A stretch of 64,000 bases of DNA from an uncultured archaeon (GTDB lineage: Archaea; Asgardarchaeota; Jordiarchaeia; Jordiarchaeales; Jordiarchaeaceae), in contig CAZECW010000004.1 in the NCBI GenBank assembly GCA_964510585.1, forward strand, positions 3,606-67,605, written 5' to 3'. The position numbers and the translations under genes are program-made. Every line of letters begins with the position of its first letter. Within the stretch, counting starts at the first letter, position 1. Below the pieces are notes generated by a model. The model was not told the DNA's origin. It saw only the letters and a list, made by a program, of their open reading frames with translations, and ran no database searches. Of the stretch, positions 421-64,000 are shown piece after piece.

Positions 421-1155
421 ATGGGGATACGGGAATTACGCGACAGGATGGAGAAAAAAAAGTACATGCAAAAAAAGGCCACAGAATTCAAACTGGAGGA
501 AATAAAAAGCGACCTGGAAACTGCAACAGAAACAAAAGAGAAACTGGAAGAAATCGCTAGAAAATATGGAGTCATCATAGCCACCAGTCCCAAACTCCAG
601 GACGAAATTGAGAGAATCAGAAAACAGTACGGAATACCCAAAGAATCCATAATTACCCAAATAATTTCTGAAGAAGAAGTACTCAAAAAGGGAGCAATGG
701 GAATAGGAACAAAAATCGACCACGAAAAACTGGGAATGCTACTCTACCAAAGAGCCCTTCTTAAACGCAAAGAAAATGGAGGAATAATGACCTTCGCGGA
801 AGCCTACCTACTGACAAACACGGGAAAACTCGCCCAAAAACTAGAAAACAAAGACATTGAAAAAGCAGTAAAAATACTTGAGAAAAACAAACTCATACCA
901 GGAACACGCCAACTGAAAAGCGGAGTAAAAATAATAAGCTTCTTCCCAATAGAACTCACCGACGACCAAAACGAAGTACTAAGCATAGCAAGCAGAAGCG
1001 GAATCATCACCCTAGAAGAAATAATGCTAAAAACAGGTTGGACAAAAACCCGCGCACAAAACGTACTACAAACCCTAGAAGAAGAAGGTATAACCCGAAA
1101 AGACGAAAGCTACGCACACGGAGAAAAATACTACTTCCCAGGATTTATGCACTAA
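421..1155 (+). CDS. ESCRT-II subunit Vps22/EAP30 (SNF8)-like protein with tandem winged-helix domains.
   Basis: The C-terminal 130 aa align colinearly with human SNF8/EAP30: KRKENGGIMTFAEA matches HRNGGLITLEEL, and GWTKTRAQNVLQTLEEEGITRKDES…YYFPGF matches KWETERARQVLEHLLKEGLAWLD…HYWLPALF. The N-terminal part is predicted coiled-coil. Confidence 0.6.
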   Translation: MGIRELRDRMEKKKYMQKKATEFKLEEIKSDLETATETKEKLEEIARKYGVIIATSPKLQDEIERIRKQYGIPKESIITQIISEEEVLKKGAMGIGTKIDHEKLGMLLYQRALLKRKENGGIMTFAEAYLLTNTGKLAQKLENKDIEKAVKILEKNKLIPGTRQLKSGVKIISFFPIELTDDQNEVLSIASRSGIITLEEIMLKTGWTKTRAQNVLQTLEEEGITRKDESYAHGEKYYFPGFMH

Positions 1156-16227: not shown

Positions 16228-16344
16228 AAAAACCACACAAAACAAGCCGATTTAAAAGCAAATTATGACAAACAATATATATAAACTTTATAAGTTTACC
16301 CCACAAGAAGAAAAACAAAAACACCACAATGGGAGAAAAAAATT

Positions 16345-17715
16345 ATGGCACAAACACAAAAAGGAGATAAGTACGAAGTCAAAGACCTAAAACTAGCACC
16401 AGGCGGACGAGCAACAATCGAATGGGCAGAATCAAGAATGCCCGTACTTATGCAAATAAGAAAAAGATTCCAAAAAGAAAAACCACTCAAAAACACCATA
16501 GTAGGAGCATGCCTCCACGTAACAAAAGAAACAGCGGTACTTGCAAAAACTCTAAAAGCTGGAGGAGCAGAAGTCTACCTTTGCGCCTCAAATCCCCTAT
16601 CAACACAAGACCATGTAGCCGCGGCACTAGTAGAAGAAGGAATAAACACATTCGCTTGGAAAGGCATGGACTACGAAGGCTACTACCGAGCAATAGCCAA
16701 CGTTATTAAAGGAGAACCGAACATCACACTAGACGACGGCGCCGACCTAGTATCAACCCTAATCAAGCTAAAAAGAGGAGAAACTGGCGAGGAAATCAAA
16801 ATAGTCAAGAAAATTCTCGGAAGCCGTACAGACTGGGCGGACAAAGTATGGGCCGGAGCCGAAGAGACCACAACCGGCGTAATCCGCCTCAGAGCCATGG
16901 CAAAAGATAACGTGCTATTATACCCAATTATAGCTACAAATGATACCCCCACGAAATGGGAAACATAAACACCACCCGTGTTTAAGCCCAAATTTGACAA
17001 CTTGTGGGGAACTGGACAAAGCACCATAGACGGTATACTAAGAGCAACAGCAGACCTCATCGCGGGCAAAATTTTTGTAGTTGCAGGATACGGTCACTGC
17101 GGTAGGGGTGTAGCGCTAAGAGCAAAGGGACTAGGAGCGAGAAGAGTCATCATCTGTGAAATAAATCCCCACCGAGCACTAACAGCCGCCTTAGAGGGCA
17201 TGGAAGTAATGCCCATGAGCGAAGCCGCTGAGGTAGGAGACATTTTCGTAACCGCCACGGGATGCAAGAATGTTATAAATGCTGAACATATGAAAAAGAT
17301 GAAAAACGGGGCAGTAATGTGTAACACAGGCCACTTTAATGTGGAAATAAATATACCTGATTTGGAAAAAATAAGCGTCAGCAAGAGAGAAATAAGACCA
17401 CTAGTCGATGAGTACACACTGGAAGATGGAAGAAAAATCTATCTGCTCGCCCAAGGCAGGCTCGTGAATCTTGCATGTGCCGAAGGACACCCAAGCGAAG
17501 TTATGGACATGAGCTTTTCGGATCAGGCTTTGGCTGTGGAGTGGATTGTTAAGAATAAGGATAAGCTGTCTGGGATGGGTAGTGTGGTTTTGGATATTCC
17601 TGAGGAGATTGATAGGACTGTTGCAGAGTTGAAGTGTAAGGCTATGGGTCTTAGATTGGATGTTTTGACCCCAGAACAGGAAGCGTATTTGTCAGGTTGG
17701 GCTGAAGGAACCTAG
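16345..17715 (+). CDS. ahcY: Adenosylhomocysteinase (S-adenosyl-L-homocysteine hydrolase), interrupted by an in-frame TAA at 16966-16968 inside a 30-nt insertion.
   Basis: Colinear with SAHH throughout: EETTTGV, the NAD-binding [18 protein letters not shown]. Where archaeal enzymes read TKYLFDN, this sequence reads [16 protein letters not shown]. Both halves are in the same frame. Confidence 0.85.
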
Positions 17716-17864
17716 TTCTTACTTTCCTATTTTTATTTTTGTTTGTGTTTTTGGTGGCTTTTTGTGGGTCTTTGGCTTTTTGGTTTTTTGTTATTGCGGA
17801 GTTCAGTCTTTATTGGGGCTTTTTTCTCTTTAAAATTGATAAAGAAGCTCTAGTTGGCTTGCCT

Positions 17865-18191: not shown

Positions 18192-18384
18192 GGGGATCCT
18201 CTCTATTGTATTTTTGTGAAGGAAAGGATATGAACCCCGCGAAAATTAAAAGGCTTGGTTTCATTTTTTGGGGATGTAGGAAAGTTTTAATTACGTTTTT
18301 ATGATTAGGTTCTGCAGATATTTATTTGGCAGTTGATTGTTGATGTTTGTGGTTGGATGTTGATGATAATTGGAGGAGAATCTG

Positions 18385-19503
18385 ATGGATACTGAAGAAA
18401 AGGTTCAGCGTGTCTTACGTGGCTTGAGTGAAGTTATCACTGTCGAGGATCTACGGAATTTATTTGAGGTAGACAACCACCCTAAGGCTTACATAGGTGT
18501 TGAGCCTTCTGGATAAACCTTTTAGGCTTTCTAGGGTTCCAGAATATTTCATTTGGGCTGGGTGGTTTGGGCTTGGAAGGTTCAGGATTTGATTCTTTGC
18601 GATGTGGATATGCATGTTCTCGAAGCAACTTGGCATGCGAAGATTAACGACAAATTTGGTGGAAACATGAATACCATACACACCTGTGCAAAGTACATTG
18701 AACACTGTTTACAAGCGTTGGGTGTAGATATTAGCAGGGTTCATTTTCCAAAGGCTGAGGATCTTATGGATAGTTTGGATTATTGGGCGACAGTGATAAA
18801 CATTGCTAAAAACACTACGCTGGCCCGCATTAAGAGAGCTATGAGCATAATGGGCCGCAAAGTAGATGATGCGGAATCTGATTATTCAAAAACACTTTAT
18901 CCTTGCATACAGGTAGCTGACATCTTATACGCCGGTTTTAAGCTGTGTCTGGGCGGAACCGACCAGAGAAGAGCTCACATATTGGCGAGGGAGTTGGCTC
19001 CTAAGTTCGGCTTGGATTGGAAGCCGGTAGCTATTCACACACCTCTCCTCATAGGCCTAGAGGGATTATCAAGGATGGAGTTTGAGGATATGAGCGAGGA
19101 TGTTTTAATGGAGGCCAAGATGTCGAAATCCAAACCTCAAACAGCAATTTTTATACATGATAAGCCAGAGGAAATTAGGAGTAAAATTTCTGCTGCTTTT
19201 TGCCCACCGAAACAGGTAGAATTCAATCCAATAATGGAAATAAATAGGCTTCTTCTCTTTTCCAGAGAAGGTTTTACTCTTCATGTAGAACGTGAGGAAA
19301 AATTTGGAGGAGATATAGATTTTGAGAGCTTTGATGAATTGAAATCTGCTTACAGCGCCGGTAATCTTCATCCTCTGGACTTGAAACGGGCTACTGCGGA
19401 GGCCCTCATTGAACTGTTGAAAAATGTTAGGCAACATTTTGAAAAGAATAGTGAAGCCCGTAACCTTTTGGAAACATTAAAAAAGGCTACAGTAACCCGG
19501 TGA
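18385..19503 (+). CDS. tyrS: Tyrosyl-tRNA synthetase (archaeal/eukaryal type), interrupted after the EPSG motif by a 30-nt insertion carrying three in-frame stops (TAA, TAG, TAG).
   Basis: The N-terminus (…AYIGVEPSG) and the downstream ORF (…HLGW…KMSKS…) are in the same frame and colinear with M. jannaschii TyrRS. 10 extra codons sit between EPSG and HLG. Confidence 0.8.
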
Positions 19504-28568: not shown

Positions 28569-29718
28569 TTAGGATACTGGGCGCCAGATAATTCCTAGTT
28601 CATCCGCAGTTTTATATGCTTCCTCCATTTCATCGCTAGTCACTCTTCTACATATATCTGCATATTCCTTCCTTCTTGGTACCTCGTGTGTTGGGTGATA
28701 CTGTTCCATTATGTTAACTAAAGCTTTAGGACAATTTTTAGCCACCCATTCAAGCACTGGTTTGGTGCAACATTCAACGTGTCCCGGTAAAACTAGGTGC
28801 CTTATTATCATACCAGATGTTCCAGGTTCCACGGTCTCATCATAGGCCATCTTGTGATTTCTTGAAACGACTTCCCAGTAGTTAGAAACTTTACTCAACC
28901 TCTCCGCGCATTGATTATTTCCATATTTAAAGTCGGGGAGCCAGAAATCCATAACGTCCAGTAAAAGCTTCATACATTCTTTGGAACAGTACATGTTAGA
29001 ATTCCATAGTTGCACAATGTTTGTTTTAGTTTCCCTGATGCCTTTTAAAATGTTGTAGGTGTTTGGAGTTGGATCTCCACCCACATAATTTATGTTTCTT
29101 GCACCTTCCCTCTTTAGATCTCTTGAGATTCGTGCAAGGCTCTCACCCGAAGTTTCTATACCGTTTTTTGGATTTGTGGAAATGTCATAGTTCTGACAAA
29201 ACACGCATTTAAAAGTGCAACTGGAGAAGAAGAATGCACCGCAAGAGCCTTAACTCTTAAGCGTTTGTGCCTGAAGGAACTAGAGGGGCCTCTTCCCCTG
29301 TATGTATGAATGCTGAGGATACGTAAGACTCGCTACCCAGTTTACAAAATCCTTTTTCACCCTCCAGTCTATTAGCTCCACACCGTCTTTCACAGAAATG
29401 ACACTGTGATAGAATCCTTCTTGCTAGTTCCACCTTAACATCCAAATAAGAAATCTTTGGCGAATCCATGTTTCCCAGTTCCAGTTCACCTGCATCAATC
29501 CGCCTCAAGACACTTCTAAAAACACCACTTATTCTATCATGTTCATCCCAAAGCTTGCCCAGCTCCGCATCTAGCTCCACATCTACACCTACTTTTAAAG
29601 CTATCATAAACTTAGCATAAAGCCTATCATTGAATACCTCATAGTACCTCCAAAGCCTCTCACGAACTATACCGTTATCCCAAACACGGTAAGCATCTGG
29701 GCGAATTAGTTTCCACAT
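28569..29718 (-). CDS. PflX-like radical SAM protein, split into two ORFs by a roughly 13-nt stop-containing insertion just upstream of the CxxxCxxC motif.
   Basis: The upstream ORF ends …HTGEEAPLVPSGTNA*. The downstream frame reads GSCGAFFFSSCTFKCVFCQNYDIS (radical-SAM cluster). The frames differ by +1. The stop in each frame lies beyond that of the other, so the two cannot be joined by a single indel. Confidence 0.6.
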
Positions 29719-34398: not shown

Positions 34399-35922
34399 CT
34401 ATAAGAGAATGGGGGTTCTTCTAATCCACCCTAAATCGTTTTTGTAGAGATCTCTTATGTCCTCTAAACCTAGGCGAAGCATAGCGAGCCTTTCAAAACC
34501 TCCGCCCCAAGCTAGAACAGGAACTTTTACGCCTAGTGGAATCGTTACTTCGGGGCGAAAGATACCCATCCCGCAGAGTTCTATCCAACCAAACTCTTCT
34601 ACGTAAACAGTGGATTGCAGTGATGGCTCTGTGTATGGGAAATAGCTGGGCCAGAACTGTACCTTCTCGAAACCTAAACGTTTATAAAACTCGGTTAAGG
34701 TTCCCATTAGGTCTCTAAGTGTCACATTTTCGTCCACAATGATACCCTCTATTTGAAAGAATTCTGCTAAATGTTTGTAGTCCAGTTTTTCGTTTCTGTA
34801 GACTCTGTCAACGGAAAAAACCTTTACTGGAGGTTCGGGGTGCTCCGCCAAGTAGCGAATTGTTGTTGCAGTAGTGTGAGTTCTCAGAATAGTTTGGCGA
34901 GCTACATTGGCATCCCATTTGTAGCCCCACCCAATTGAACCAGTTTTCCACCCATTTTCGTGGGTTTTTGACACCCTTTGAACTATTTGTTTATCCGGAA
35001 GCTTGGCGGTTTTGGGAAACTTTAGATAGAATGTATCATGCATTTCGCGTGCTGGATGATCCTGTGGTTGGAACAAGGCGTCAAAATTCCAAAAAGCGGA
35101 CTCTACAAAAGGTCCCCTTATTTCGGTAAACCCCAAATTCAAAAAGATCTCTCTAATTTCGTTAATCAATTCTGCTACAGGGTGAATTTTTCCCGGGTGA
35201 ATCGTTACTACTGGGGCTTCAACATCATACTTCCTAAATTTGGTACTTCGCCATTTTCCCGACTTTATGAGATCCGAAGTGAGGATGCTGACTTCCTCAA
35301 CAACACTAACCCCTGATTGAGCAAGTCTTCTCCCCTCCTCAGTTATAATCAGAGAACGAACCTTTTCTTGGCGTATTTTAATTAAATTTCTTTTTTGAAG
35401 GGAATCAAGCATTTTCTTCATTTTGTTTGGAAGCTGAGATTCCTCTACCACACCTCTATCATTCAACAATTTTAATAGGTTCTCATCGTCCCCTAGAGGG
35501 GGCATCTCCTTAACACTTATGAGAGTTTCACTATCTTGTTTCTTAAATTCTGCCCAATTTTTTCTCCGAAGCCACCCCAGAGCTATTTTTAAATCCTCCT
35601 CGGAGAAACTGGCTTCTTTAGAAAGTTGGGATAAAGTGGCGTTGCCCCCCAACTTTAATACAATATTTAAAAGCCTCCGCTCCGGAAGCCCTTCTTCCAC
35701 GTATTTGGAGCCCTCTTTGAGTATTTCCACGTAGAGTTTTTGTGTTTCTCTCTGCTCCACTAAACCCTTTTCGCCCAGCCATGCTGAGGCTCTAGCCACC
35801 GCAACATGGTCTAGCCCCGTTTCTTTCTCTAAATCGCTGATTGTGGTTTCACCTTTGCTCTTGTTTAAGGCTTTTAGAATTTTAAGCTCTATTTCTCGTA
35901 ACTTTACCTGTTCCTTTACCAT
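34399..35922 (-). CDS. pheS: Phenylalanyl-tRNA synthetase alpha subunit.
   Basis: Class II motifs (FRPEVTIP…, GGGFERLAMLRLG motif 3) with an N-terminal winged-helix extension. Confidence 0.9.
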   Translation of the reverse strand: MVKEQVKLREIELKILKALNKSKGETTISDLEKETGLDHVAVARASAWLGEKGLVEQRETQKLYVEILKEGSKYVEEGLPERRLLNIVLKLGGNATLSQLSKEASFSEEDLKIALGWLRRKNWAEFKKQDSETLISVKEMPPLGDDENLLKLLNDRGVVEESQLPNKMKKMLDSLQKRNLIKIRQEKVRSLIITEEGRRLAQSGVSVVEEVSILTSDLIKSGKWRSTKFRKYDVEAPVVTIHPGKIHPVAELINEIREIFLNLGFTEIRGPFVESAFWNFDALFQPQDHPAREMHDTFYLKFPKTAKLPDKQIVQRVSKTHENGWKTGSIGWGYKWDANVARQTILRTHTTATTIRYLAEHPEPPVKVFSVDRVYRNEKLDYKHLAEFFQIEGIIVDENVTLRDLMGTLTEFYKRLGFEKVQFWPSYFPYTEPSLQSTVYVEEFGWIELCGMGIFRPEVTIPLGVKVPVLAWGGGFERLAMLRLGLEDIRDLYKNDLGWIRRTPILL

Positions 35923-41382: not shown

Positions 41383-42441
41383 TTATTCTAGAATCTGGTT
41401 GTCTAGTTTTCCATAATTTTTCTGGTATCTTGCCTTAAATTCTTCGATTGTGAATTTGTGATTTTGGGTTCCCTCATGTTCTACGGCGTATCCTCCACAC
41501 ACGGCTCCCATTTGGCATGCTATTTTTAGTTCTTCTATAGATAAATCTTCTAATCGGGGGTTAATTTTTGAAAGTCCAGAAAGTAGTCCGCCTCTGAAGG
41601 CGTCGCCTGCGCCTGTGGGGTCAACTAGTTTGGAAATTTTTACTGCTGGTATGTTGATTTGTTCATTGTTTAAGTAGATGGAGCAGCCGCGTTCACCGCG
41701 AGTAATGATTGTGGCATCTATAATGTCATCTAATTTCTTTTGCAGCTTGTTTTCAACCAGCCCTGCTTCGTAATCGTTAACTATGAGTATTGATGCCCCG
41801 CTAATAAATTTGTAGAGGTCCTCTGGCGCGAAATTGTAAATCATTTGACCTGGATCTGCGATGAATGGGACGCCTAGTTCTTTGAATTCTTTGGCGTGGC
41901 GGCACATTGTTCCTATGGGGTTGGGTGAAACTATGCCCAGTTCAACGTTTTTGTTTTTCACTATCTCTCTTATTTTTATGTTGCAAGTGTCTTGAAGGGC
42001 GCCTGTGTGAAAAATGGACATTTGGTCTCCTATTTTGCTCGTTACAATGTAGGCTTCAGCGGTGTCTTCCTCTTCGCACACCACTAATCCGCTTAAATCT
42101 ATTCCACATTTTTCCAAGTGTTTTTTGTAATCGCGACTAACGAAATCTTTCCCAACACAAGATATTGGAAGAGGATTACCATTGGTTAGTTTCATATTGT
42201 ACGCTATGTTTAGAGCGGTTCCGCCAAATGATACCTTCTTATTTACTAAGAAGGAAAAGCTGATTCGGGTGTCCCTGCCCCTTTTTTCAATGGCGTTTCT
42301 AAAAATTTCATCAAGAGTTTCTTCAGTAAACGCTATCACATCAAACGCCGCAGATCCCGAAATAGCAACCTTCTCCTTTTTCGGCAAGGTGGTCAGGCCT
42401 TCACTTCGTATTTCTTGAAAAACATTAAATTCTCTAAACAA
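41383..42441 (-). CDS. PfkB-family carbohydrate/nucleoside kinase.
   Basis: C-terminal PfkB signature DPTGAGDAFRGGLLSGL. Confidence 0.75.
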   Translation of the reverse strand: MFREFNVFQEIRSEGLTTLPKKEKVAISGSAAFDVIAFTEETLDEIFRNAIEKRGRDTRISFSFLVNKKVSFGGTALNIAYNMKLTNGNPLPISCVGKDFVSRDYKKHLEKCGIDLSGLVVCEEEDTAEAYIVTSKIGDQMSIFHTGALQDTCNIKIREIVKNKNVELGIVSPNPIGTMCRHAKEFKELGVPFIADPGQMIYNFAPEDLYKFISGASILIVNDYEAGLVENKLQKKLDDIIDATIITRGERGCSIYLNNEQINIPAVKISKLVDPTGAGDAFRGGLLSGLSKINPRLEDLSIEELKIACQMGAVCGGYAVEHEGTQNHKFTIEEFKARYQKNYGKLDNQILE

Positions 42442-58599: not shown

Positions 58600-59700
58600 C
58601 GAGAAAACCACCGTAAACACCCTAAACAATTCTACAAGGCACCAAACACAAAAAAGACACAAAAAAATTAGCAAAATATCCTTATAAGCATTTGTATACC
58701 AAAAACCAAACCCGACCCACACCCCACAAAAACCCAAACACACAACTACGCTACAAGACCACAAAACAACCAAAAGCACGAAAACATAACAAGTACACAT
58801 AACCAAACAACACAAGAAAAATGAAACACAACACACCCCCCAACAAACTGAACCACACAAAACAAGAACCCAAAACACCCAATTTCCAACCCCAAAAAGA
58901 AACAATACAAAACCCCCAAAAACCAACACTCTCCTCCCAAAACAAAAAACATCAAACACACCACCAAAAACAAACTGCCAAAAACACCAATCACCAAAAA
59001 ACAGTAAAAAACAAAAAAATAATCACCAACACCAAAACACCACAAAAACCAAAAATAAGGAAAAACCATTGGGAGACACCGTGTACCCTAGGATACTAAC
59101 ACATGACATCCCAGGATAGAGCGACACGCCCTTGCCTCAGCCATGCTCTCTCATACCAGGGAAGCACCGGCGTCTCCCAAAGCCGCTGTAGTCTACCTGG
59201 GTAGGCTCCCCAATCATAGAAAGGCAACCGCCACACTCCTGAAGAAGCCCGTCGAGTAGACATTATCACGGCAACAAATGTAGCCCAACCCCTTGCCCTA
59301 AACTTCATCCCAACTAAAAAAGAAAGTCAGCCAGTCCTCAGAGGTGGGCCAACAATAACAAAAACAAAACAAACTAATGAAACTTTCGGAAAACAAAACA
59401 ACCAACCAGACACAACCCACCAAAAACAAAACACACAAAAACCACGAAAAACCCACCACAAAAAGTTTAGACAATAAAAACCCCGCCCCAAACCCGAAAA
59501 GCGAAAACAAAAACACACCACCACAAAAAACTAGGCAGCATCCCCGCTCCATTCACAGGCAGCCCCATACGAAAAAGGCGCCCCAACCCATCCCAGCCCA
59601 CCTCCTTTAGTTATTCTTCTGGGTCTACCCCCTAACCTGTTAGCAGAATTGGCTCCCCACACTTAACCAACTTATCACCTGACATTCACGCAACCCCTCA
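58600..59700. repeat. Low-complexity tract composed almost only of A and C on the + strand, nearly devoid of stop codons in any frame, interrupted by a GC-rich unique island (about 59070-59330).
   Basis: Long runs such as caaaacaaccaaaagcacgaaaacataacaag… and accaaaaacaaaacacacaaaaaccacgaaaaaccc. The island contains the stem GGGAGACACCG / CGGCGTCTCCC. Confidence 0.7.
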
Positions 59701-59848
59701 TAAAGCCTTGCCTCAGAAAAAGGGAAAAAGATATAGGAAGGGAAGAAAAAATAAGTTTTATACCTCCCCTGGGGGCAAAGGAAGGGAAGACACAGCCAAC
59801 CATGCAACGAAGCAAATAAATAAAAAAGTTGAAGAAGAGGAAACAAAA

Positions 59849-61570: not shown

Positions 61571-62335
61571 GTTTAATCTCGCGTTCTTTTTTCTCTTCCC
61601 ATGGGGGTAAACTCCATCCCTACATAGGTCTGGGATTCGAGGTGGCGGGGCTTTTATCCCTGCTGCCCCAGGTGGACCAGTTTTACCACGAGCGCATCTG
61701 GCCCGCGGCAAAATTCGCCCTGGGAGCCTCATGGGTGCAGAAGCAATAATACAAAGCGCAATAGTTAACACCATAGTGATAAACGGCTTAAGCGCAGTGG
61801 AGAACGCCTGGGAGAACCAGGTGTTTGGAGACCCCTGGTACCAGGACGCCAAAATAGACTTCACACCTCTGCTGGAATTTCTGCCCCCGGACACCTGGAG
61901 CCTGCAGGACTACCTAGACAGCTGGACAACAAAATACATATACGGAATGTGGTGGTTCTAAAAGTTATACTTCACTCATGGGTGGGTGTTTGAGTTTTTG
62001 GTGGATGGGGTTACGTAACTGTTGCATGAAACCAGGTATTTCTGTAGCGTATACGGTCTTCCAAAAAAAAGGGGGACAGGGAATATTGGCTCTGACAATC
62101 ACCCGGACGTGTGGCACACACAGGAGCCGAATGGGTGAACAGGCCCCTCCCTAAGAATGTGGGGAGAGGGCTGGAGGAAACGGTGAAGCCCTTTACCCAA
62201 TGGAACCATGTTCCCCCCCAGATGCGGGCGGATGCAGTCCTTTGTGCGGAGAGGCAGGCTGTACCCTGAGATGAAGCTGGGGATGAAGCCCGAAGATGCT
62301 GTTGAAAAACTTCTCTGTTTTGTAGGAGGGGTAGT

Positions 62336-63313
62336 TTAGGTTGAGGGGCGAAGGGTTGGTGTTCGGGAATGTGCAAGGGATGTTCTCCCTGTCTGTTTGA
62401 GTTTTAGTCCTGCAGCTACCCTTCTCTTTATGTTTATGGCGGTGGCTGTGTGAAGCTGTTGGGCTTCCACCTTGCTTAGACCACGATATCGCGCCTTTCC
62501 CGCTCCATGTCTCTTTGCCTCGGAGATTGTTCCCTCAACTGGGCAGCGCCGCTTAAGCTTCTTCTGGTACTTTACGCTCTTCTCCTTCTTCCGGTACTTG
62601 TCTATTATGGGGGACAGCATCACCTGGATCTCAAGGCTTCTTCCCTCTTTGGATTTTGTGCACAAGCCGTAGTTTGGGCAGTCTAGGCACTGCTTTCCGA
62701 AGTGAAAGATTAAACACTCGTCAAGCCCCTCTCCCTTCCTCTTTACTCTAATGCTTCTCTTCCCCGCAGGGCAGAAGGCAACTTCTCTCTTAACGTTCAC
62801 CTTGAAGTCCTTCCTCTGGAACCCTTCCTTCCCGCGGGTGTCAGACTTCACACGGCCCACGATTTCAACTCCTATCGTCCTGCAGAGCACTATCCCCTTA
62901 GCGCTCGTGTATCCCATGTCCGTTGTAAGTTCATTTGCATCAATCTTCTCCTTGGCGTCTTTGGCTATTTCGTACAGCGCTTCGTAGTCGGGTCTGTCGG
63001 CGGTGTTGAGCATGCAGGTAACTATGAACGGTGTCTCATTTTTCCCGGGGATGGTTTCGCAGATGTGGGCCTGGTATCCGGGGTTTATCTTCTCTCCCCT
63101 TTTTCCCACCTTGGCGTCGGGGTCGTGTGGGCTGACCATTTTCCTCTTTATCTTGTCCTTAACCTCCACCTCGCCTCCTTCCTTTAGGTCGTATACCTCA
63201 TTGAAGGCTTGCTCTAGAAGTTGGTACTCATCTAGATTTTCAAGATTGTTTTTCCGGCAGGTTTCGAGAATCCGGTGGGCGTGTTCGCCGTATTCTTTGA
63301 GCCGTTTTTTCAT
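62336..63313 (-). mobile_element. IS5/IS1182-family DDE transposase.
   Basis: HDPDAKVGKRG (the DPDAR-type motif) and C-terminal SEAKRHGAGKARYRGLSKVEAQQLHTATAINIKR, characteristic of this family. GC-rich relative to the host. Confidence 0.7.
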
Positions 63314-63423
63314 GGTCTCCCGGCTCTTGGCGAAGGGCTATGCATTACCCATAACTTTTAAGGGTGTTGGAGGGGTATCTGAGTGTGCATATAATGTTCA
63401 CAATTAAGCTTAGGTGAAAAGCG

Positions 63424-64000
63424 ATGTTACCATGGGTTGAACAAGAGCTTCAAGGCGTAGATCTGGGCGATGCCCGTTTAAACAGCCGCCTGATGAAGCT
63501 GGTTAATGATTTTGCCACCAATCCGAATGCCAGCATCCCTCAAGCCTGCGGAGAATGGAGCGCCACAAAGGCCGCCTACCGTTTTTTCGACTCAGAACGG
63601 ATCAAACCAGAGGATATCCGCGCCGCTCACATCCAAAGCACCATCCAACGAGTGAAGAAACATGAAACCATCCTCCTTGTACAGGACACCACCAACCTAG
63701 ATTTCACCCACCATCCCCACACCAAAAACATAGGATACCTCGACAATGTCTTCCAGAAAGGGTTAAAGGTCCACTCCACCATAGCAGTAACACCAGATGG
63801 AGTCCCCCTAGGACTAATCTGCCAAGAGGTTTGGGTCCGCGACCCCCCAGAACCTGGGGAAGAGACACCAGAGAGACAAACGCGACACCAAAGACAAGGA
63901 AAGCCAGCGCTGGCTAACAGCTCTGCAAAACAGTCAGGACGCTGTGCCAGAGGAGGTTCACATAATCATCGTGGCCGACAGGGAGGCAGACATCTACGAC
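63424..64000 (+). mobile_element. IS4-family (Tn5-like) transposase, running off the window end, with an apparent frameshift near 63885.
   Basis: Frame 1 gives MLPWVEQELQG…LGDARLNSRLMKL…ACGEWSATKAAYRFF…LLVQDTTNLDF…GLKVHSTIAVTPDGVPLGLICQEVWVRD. The continuation KESQRWLTALQ…VHIIIVADREADIYD is in a different frame. Confidence 0.7.

Follow-up and report, generated by a model that had tools for sequence, protein, structure and literature searches.

An interrupted adenosylhomocysteinase gene

How can a cell obtain a working enzyme from a housekeeping gene whose reading frame contains a stop codon? The question is raised by ahcY, encoding adenosylhomocysteinase (16345-17715, plus strand), in the window, the whole 64-kb stretch of DNA analysed here. 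A single frame encodes the complete enzyme apart from a TAA at 16966-16968, which is in frame with both halves of the gene. Alignment to solved SAHH structures runs end to end and leaves a single 10-residue gap, located between TK.. and ..FDN. This bears out the proposal of the initial annotation that the TAA lies within a 30-nt (10-codon) insert in a gene otherwise colinear with SAHH. At the DNA level, comparison with intron-less Asgard ahcY produces a clean 30-column gap, AAATGGG------AATTTGA, and the intron-less genes of Heimdallarchaeota and others read through the site as an uninterrupted AAATGGGAATTTGA.

Removal of the insert in silico gives a product that matches the Pfam families AdoHcyase and AdoHcyase_NAD. 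In a search of 5.8 billion proteins, its closest homologs are Asgard sequences at ~74% identity (Jordarchaeales, Promethearchaeota and Hodarchaeales), all reading TKWEFDN followed by [LIV]WG; the 74% identical protein of a Jordarchaeales MAG is full length at 445 aa. The same search returned no full-length spliced ahcY protein whose identity to the query exceeds 74%.

Gene callers divide ahcY into a 207-aa and a 245-aa ORF; the start codon assigned to the latter is GTG 16978, within the insert. Public databases list exon 1 on its own, as an 'adenosylhomocysteinase' fragment of 207 aa. One possibility would be to take these calls at face value. On that reading ahcY would be a genuine two-part gene: each half would yield its own polypeptide, the two would come together as an active enzyme, and the insert would serve only as a spacer. 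Against this, the break falls in the middle of TKWEFDN, a conserved motif. Other interrupted genes, described below, weigh on the same proposal.

Structure of the ahcY insert

On the evidence of its sequence, the 30-nt ahcY insert is very probably a bulge-helix-bulge (BHB) intron of the relaxed HBh' form that is removed from the pre-mRNA. The intron would span 16963..16992, including the TAA. Exon 1 (16345..16962) ends in ACG AAA UGG GAA, encoding T K W E, and exon 2 (16993..17715) begins with UUU GAC AAC, encoding F D N. Here, the exonic strand of helix H, UGGG (16957..16960), forms four base pairs with the intronic strand CCCA (16987..16990). The 5' bulge, B1, is AAA (16961..16963), with a predicted cut between 16962 and 16963. 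It is followed by the 23-nt intron hairpin h' (16964..16986), in which eight of nine stem positions (16964-72 with 16978-86) are paired, the exception being one A.A mismatch, and which closes on the loop CACCC (16973-77). The inner hairpin described earlier, AAACAC (16967-72) opposite GTGTTT (16978-83) around this loop, is present as claimed. On the 3' side, the bulge or loop B2 is AAU (16991..16993), with a predicted cut between 16992 and 16993, and the outer helix beyond it amounts to only 2-3 A-U pairs.

Excision by the BHB rule yields the junction UGG GAA/UUU GAC (slashes mark cut or junction sites), which translates as TKWE/FDNLWG and is identical to the closest Asgard homologs. Owing to the AA repeat at the 5' site, a cut one or two bases further upstream would give the same product. 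The opposite placement, with the bulges 5' of the helix strands, was also considered. It too excises 30 nt and results in TKPKFDN; the tRNA 37/38 geometry places bulges 3' and the homologs read TKWEFDN, so this alternative was rejected.

Chance does not account for this structure. The 73-nt ahcY region folds with z = -2.9 relative to shuffled versions. For the 37-nt motif, a 4/4 helix together with at least eight of nine hairpin pairs, in the register required by homology, appeared in 0 of 200,000 shuffles.

Comparison with the canonical hBHBh' motif locates the departure at the 3' side. The 4-bp central helix is found in ahcY, in the two further interrupted genes of the window (tyrS and a radical-SAM gene) and in a second ahcY intron of the relative L096/L097. 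The 3-nt 5' bulge between H and h' is likewise present in ahcY, and is cleanest in the fold of J. madagascariense (L005). What ahcY lacks is the 3-nt 3' bulge with a stable exon-exon helix h. Minimum-free-energy folds of ahcY and tyrS put the 3' site within a loop of 11 nt; in that of the radical-SAM gene it faces a loop of 18 nt. Because the outer exon-exon helix is weak, the ahcY intron is assigned to the relaxed HBh' form, of the kind seen in cbf5 and in non-canonical tRNA introns, and not the canonical one. All four introns have the relaxed arrangement of one h'-B-H unit and a second cut 2 nt past H. When each bulge is cut after its second nucleotide, the products agree with the homolog consensus for all three window genes (SGT/IFFSSC in the radical-SAM gene), and the frame is recovered in the variants of 28, 29 and 31 nt.

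The initial annotation had pointed out identical AAA codons at the two edges of the insert. These codons do exist, at 16954-56 and 16990-92, although AAATGGG had been placed one position off and occupies 16954-16960. The match is incidental: one AAA is a Lys codon, and the other consists of the end of CCCA plus the first two bases of the 3' bulge. The two do not act as take-off and landing sites. Nor does the stretch between them correspond to the removed segment, as its loss would delete the conserved Trp-Glu; the segment that fits is 16963-16992.

The insert in related lineages

A scan with one genome per species assigns the window to Candidatus Jordarchaeia (also called Freyarchaeia). Intron-bearing ahcY genes are known from the window and five relatives, comprising four MAG assemblies and a metagenome lineage represented by two contigs (L096/L097). 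Identity to the window at the amino acid level, and the length of the first intron, are 98% and 29 nt in SQRJ_82, 96% and 30 nt in both QZM_A3 and RPF2, 88% and 28 nt in L096/L097, and 84% and 27 nt in J. madagascariense. The insertion site is identical in all five. The insert is lineage-specific, a point raised by the initial annotation: it is kept at one site in these relatives and is absent from intron-less Asgard ahcY.

Helix H and both bulges are invariant in six of six intron-bearing sequences, and the variable positions fall mostly in the loop. The A.A mismatch of the window's stem becomes an A-U pair in J. madagascariense and L096. No double-sided compensatory changes were counted among the six introns, whose sequences are too similar for this purpose.

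Introns of 28 and 29 nt put exons 1 and 2 into different frames, and the exons nevertheless remain 84-98% identical to the window protein. Because these versions shift the frame while the exons stay conserved, the insert cannot be translated and requires precise removal. The same combination rules out a translated insert, simple readthrough and a pseudogene. For SQRJ_82, the length of 29 nt is known from one MAG only and may reflect a miscalled homopolymer; the 28-nt and 31-nt cases each have two independent contigs behind them. Orthologs that translate the insert without a stop had been named as the finding that would reduce the TAA to a simple nonsense mutation. None of the relatives translates the insert, all keep the stop, and in two lineages the length is not a multiple of three.

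When a stop breaks the frame of an essential gene and the genome was assembled from a metagenome, one would ordinarily suspect a pseudogene, a nonsense mutation within an enlarged loop, or a mistake in sequencing or assembly. Here, such an origin has a negligible probability. The 207-aa exon-1 ORF is identical in sequence in independent JGI and Logan assemblies, and the interruption recurs in at least five related lineages, which answers the concern over a miscall. The exons are under clear purifying selection (84-98% amino acid identity), the structure of the insert is conserved while its loop drifts, and no second ahcY copy is seen within the window.

The lineage L096/L097 contains a second ahcY intron, of 31 nt, at EGH/PSEV. 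It has the helix GGCC/GGCU, the bulges ACA and CAC and a 9-position hairpin, and this ahcY is spread over three frames. An in-frame stop lies a few codons past the 5' junction in the three window introns and in every relative examined; the second L096 intron is without one. Such early stops would quickly truncate translation of unspliced transcripts.

Two further interrupted genes in the window

The initial annotation also linked the ahcY insert to one in tyrS through a shared mechanism, which it did not name. The two are indeed alike in size and design, and a common mechanism accounts for both. In tyrS (plus strand), exon 1 (18370..18514) has the 3' end GAG CCU UCU GGA U, a 30-nt BHB intron is predicted at 18515..18544, and exon 2 occupies 18545..19503. 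Helix H pairs CUGG (18509-12) with CCAG (18539-42), B1 is AUA (18513-15), the hairpin covers 18516-38 (23 nt), and B2 is AAU (18543-45). Excision gives EPSG-LF-HLGW, and Aeropyrum pernix TyrRS aligns to tyrS with a 10-residue gap exactly at the insert. The motif arises in the required register in 122 of 200,000 shuffles. In J. madagascariense and L096 the tyrS intron is 31 nt long, and only with the predicted cuts (GGA C/.../UA UUU) do the exons come back into one frame.

The third case is a radical-SAM gene (PflX-like activase) on the minus strand, which is called as two ORFs in different frames and publicly annotated as a 233-aa fragment. Exon 1 is 29265..29718, the predicted BHB intron of 31 nt is 29264-29234, and exon 2 is 28569..29233. 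Helix H pairs GCAC (29270-67) with GUGC (29239-36), B1 is AAA, the hairpin spans 29263-40, and B2 is AUU. The spliced product, PLVPSGT joined to IFFSSCTFKCVFCQN, is the commonest sequence among the matches listed that have the cysteine motif. Shuffling yields the motif in the required register in 1031 of 200,000 trials. In a Jordarchaeaceae relative (L164), this position is occupied by an intron of 28 nt whose hairpin has been remodelled yet remains paired. In tyrS and the radical-SAM gene alike, excision at the BHB positions is the only one that recovers the consensus protein.

These two genes bear on the proposal of a truly split gene. In tyrS, the first downstream start is the Leu codon of HLG, and a separately translated second half would lose the His that aligns with HIGW of A. 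pernix TyrRS. In addition, three unrelated genes would each need a spacer of 27-31 nt with BHB geometry in exact register. Independent translation of the halves is therefore very improbable, despite the two ORFs called in ahcY, and removal of an intron from the RNA accounts for the same genes.

They also allow excision to be weighed against translational bypassing, known from phage T4 gene 60 and the 'byp' elements of Magnusiomyces mitochondria, in which the ribosome would skip the insert. In bypass elements a take-off codon is followed by a stop and a hairpin, and the landing codon beyond them matches the take-off codon; these elements are similar in size to the inserts described here. The resemblance is real: the stop is at or just past the 5' edge (one codon after the junction in ahcY; directly after GGA in tyrS, in each case TAA), a hairpin follows, AAA codons flank the ahcY insert, and a hop would tolerate lengths not divisible by three. 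However, a hop from AAA to AAA removes the Trp-Glu of ahcY, and obtaining TKWE-FDN would require take-off at GAA and landing at AAA, a mismatch. The tyrS (U/UA) and radical-SAM (A/UC) junctions lie inside codons, which a hop is unable to assemble, and whole-codon landings give products that depart from the homolog consensus. Bypassing has no need for a 4-bp helix and 3-nt bulge, yet all four inserts have both in the register that predicts the junction. Taken together, these features make a ribosomal hop hardly credible and favour the intron.

The remainder of the window was surveyed for similar cases. Searching the entire window for the bare BHB motif gave hundreds to thousands of chance matches, whether or not the joining of ORFs was demanded, and was of no use. 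A stricter scan (4/4 helix, closed hairpin of -3 kcal/mol or below, ORF rescue) gave 12 matches, of which tyrS and the radical-SAM gene supply the only credible ones; its filter misses ahcY owing to the A.A mismatch. A scan of ORF junctions flagged many in-frame stops between long ORFs, for example PheRS alpha/beta with TAG and an M20 peptidase/amidohydrolase. These represent ordinary adjacent genes with ribosome-binding sites, and neither introns nor recoded stops. A PfkB kinase gene (41386-42441) suspected of a truncated N-terminus is intact. Pfam checks gave no evidence of interruption in other window ORFs of at least 140 aa; a few of these ORFs match no Pfam family. At least three of the ~60 genes in the 64-kb window thus bear introns, and the introns at the three window sites and in their homologs are all 27-31 nt long.

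Proposed splicing mechanism

We infer that splicing occurs in vivo, with EndA, the tRNA-splicing endonuclease, and RtcB as the enzymes. In the pre-mRNA, UGGG at the end of the exon would pair with CCCA near the 3' end of the intron, forming the 4-bp central helix. The AAA bulge would set this helix apart from the 9-position hairpin of the intron, and the 3' cut would fall two bases past the helix, within AAU. EndA is predicted to cut each bulge between nucleotides 2 and 3, which is where the archaeal splicing endonuclease cuts (PMC2738675). RtcB would then ligate the exons, and would probably also circularise the intron.

The mature ahcY mRNA would thereby encode TKWE/FDNLWG in a normal adenosylhomocysteinase of 446 aa. 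At the RNA level, the predicted spliced junctions are ACGAAATGGGAA joined to TTTGACAACTTG for ahcY, CCTTCTGGAT joined to TATTTCATTTGG for tyrS, and CCTTCAGGCACAA joined to TCTTCTTCTCC for the radical-SAM gene. The 30-nt intron circle is expected to contain ...GCCCAA joined to ACATAAAC, and the predicted spliced products include the junction peptide AYIGVEPSGLFHLGWVVWAWK.

The lineage provides a suitable context for this proposal. Asgard archaea have an (alpha-beta)2 EndA bearing the L1 loop, and enzymes of this type cut relaxed motifs (HBh' and bulge-helix-loop) (PMC5829648). In Freyarchaeia/Atabeyarchaeia, 92-95% of tRNA genes have introns, often several, and many of these are at non-canonical positions (PMC11291895). 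Because the Asgard type of EndA accepts relaxed motifs and the load of tRNA introns is high, BHB splicing fits what is known of the group. The window itself encodes neither EndA nor RtcB, and ARAGORN finds no tRNA in it.

A related possibility is that the insert is excised from the RNA by an activity other than EndA and RtcB, such as another hairpin-recognising endonuclease or a self-cleaving element. The 3' site is non-canonical as a bulge, and the range of 27-31 nt is narrower than the 11-175 nt of archaeal tRNA introns (PMC2738675), both of which would be compatible with a different nuclease. In contrast, the 5' half of the motif (h'-bulge-H, with a 3-nt bulge and a 4-bp helix) is exactly the recognition unit of EndA, and the relaxed substrates cut by the Asgard-type enzyme (PMC5829648) include the HBh' form. 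As for a self-cleaving element, no Rfam family, ribozymes included, reaches its gathering score in the window, and none is matched at E <= 1 in 58900-59800. Another nuclease is thus an improbable explanation, and EndA the better candidate for the cuts.

Extent and significance

It is quite possible, if slightly short of probable, that in Jordarchaeaceae mobile BHB mini-introns have spread throughout the genome, passing from tRNA into protein genes, with gain and loss at the level of species and ~100 introns per genome, a figure extrapolated from the ~3 of 60 genes in the window. If so, a prokaryote, and one from the archaeal group closest to eukaryotes, would routinely splice mRNA with its tRNA machinery when expressing its genes. 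Introns that turn over in housekeeping genes would constitute a living system for asking how a cell that lacks a nucleus tolerates mRNA introns under coupled transcription and translation. Such tolerance is central to models for the origin of introns and of the nucleus.

There may also be a practical consequence. Fragmented annotation of the kind seen here could bias metabolic reconstructions of Asgard MAGs, as well as estimates of their completeness and counts of their pseudogenes, a fault that a BHB-aware gene caller would remedy.

Comparison with known systems

In the literature searched, cbf5 is the only archaeal protein gene with documented introns, and the Asgard cases are apparently frequent. 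The full texts searched, whose coverage is incomplete, contain no reports of BHB introns in protein genes of Asgard, Jordarchaeia or Freyarchaeia. A 2025 paper on archaeal splicing endonucleases refers, for mRNA introns, only to three cbf5 studies; work on the cbf5 intron includes Watanabe 2002, Yoshinari 2006 and Yokobori 2009 (PMC2738675).

The intron of the cbf5 pre-mRNA in Crenarchaeota (Aeropyrum, Sulfolobus, Desulfurococcales) is likewise short, located in a protein gene, and mostly has a relaxed BHB-like motif (PMC2738675). It also resembles the present introns in that the junction is set by a cut between bulge nucleotides 2 and 3, and in its gain and loss among close relatives (PMC2738675). 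It is cut by a hetero-oligomeric EndA, and its splicing was demonstrated by cDNA and in vitro cleavage (PMC2738675). The introns described here differ in residing in an Asgard host, and in affecting ahcY (at two sites), tyrS and a radical-SAM gene, as opposed to one gene at one site; in this case we infer the splicing.

With the BHB introns of archaeal tRNA and rRNA, the inserts share a recognition motif and, presumably, the enzymes, and their size is within the range of tRNA introns. In contrast to these, the substrate is an mRNA. The exonic half of the motif consists of constrained codons, and splicing must precede or compete with translation.

The bypass elements of T4 gene 60 and Magnusiomyces are comparable as short hairpin inserts, with a stop near the 5' edge, in otherwise intact genes. 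They are set apart by the position of the tyrS and radical-SAM junctions within codons and by flanking codons that do not match.

A eukaryotic counterpart is the unconventional mRNA splicing of HAC1/XBP1, in which a small intron in a coding sequence (26 nt in XBP1) is removed without the spliceosome by endonucleolytic cuts within RNA structure. A tRNA ligase, which in animals is RtcB, then seals the exons, and removal changes the frame or the product. Unlike the mechanism proposed here, HAC1/XBP1 is cut by IRE1 at twin 7-nt stem-loops and not by the tRNA endonuclease at a BHB, and it serves as a regulated stress switch. The ahcY, tyrS and radical-SAM introns would extend the parallel with this eukaryotic pathway, in that a tRNA ligase would again act on mRNA.

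Further putative introns in protein-coding genes

Apart from the adenosylhomocysteinase (ahcY) insert, a bulge-helix-bulge (BHB) mini-intron also occurs in a third protein-coding gene of the window, which encodes a radical-SAM (PflX-like) activase. This putative intron spans 31 nt (29234-29264, minus strand), and gene calling placed its flanking exons (29718-29265 and 29233-28569, minus strand) in two separate ORFs that do not share a frame. Taking out the 31 nt restores PLVPSGT/IFFSSCTFKCVFCQN across the junction in the predicted product. The Jordarchaeaceae relative L164 has an intron at the identical site, with a length of 28 nt.

In ahcY itself, two metagenome contigs of one related lineage (L096 and L097; 88% amino-acid identity) carry a second intron, of 31 nt, positioned between EGH and PSEV (in the regions L096 3216-3320 and L097 3621-3725). 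Its predicted helix is GGCC/GGCU, with bulges ACA and CAC. This intron is missing from the window ahcY. This distribution shows that these putative mRNA introns were recently gained or lost within the lineage.

An insertion and a stop codon probably unrelated to introns

Relative to solved SAHH structures, AhcY also contains an in-frame insertion of roughly 20 residues at about residues 141-170 (16760-16850). As Asgard AhcY homologs have a similar total length (about 447 aa), this insertion is probably a translated, lineage-specific loop rather than an intron.

A separate in-frame TAG (34399-34401) connects two long ORFs on the minus strand (35922-34402 and 34392-32704). Pyrrolysine readthrough at this codon was considered and dropped: the ORFs encode the PheRS alpha and beta subunits and are separated by a GGAGGAGG ribosome-binding site, which makes them ordinary neighboring genes.

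Genomic context

Positions 421-1152 (+) encode a eukaryotic signature protein of the EAP30/Vps36 family (ESCRT-II-like), consistent with an Asgard origin of the window. At the opposite end, a DDE transposase ORF (62339-63313, minus strand) lies inside a G+C-richer stretch (62000-64000; G+C of 0.515 vs about 0.41 elsewhere) and is probably an insertion sequence.

Long, low-complexity spacers consist, on a given strand, of nearly all A+C or nearly all G+T; these include 58700-59060, 59360-59540, 16250-16340 and 17716-17800, with others elsewhere. Across the 64 kb, the (G+T)-(A+C) skew, which goes as low as -0.6, changes sign about 35 times, independently of gene orientation; one such change falls within the 3'-terminal part of ahcY, near position 17435.

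Between A+C-only spacers are islands of normal G+C (59060-59350 and 59540-59720) that lack a long ORF and have the appearance of structured RNA. Rfam searches of both islands gave zero matches at E <= 1, and ARAGORN found zero tRNAs across the entire window. The islands could be RNA genes heavily disrupted by introns, comparable to what has been reported for tRNAs of the same lineage.
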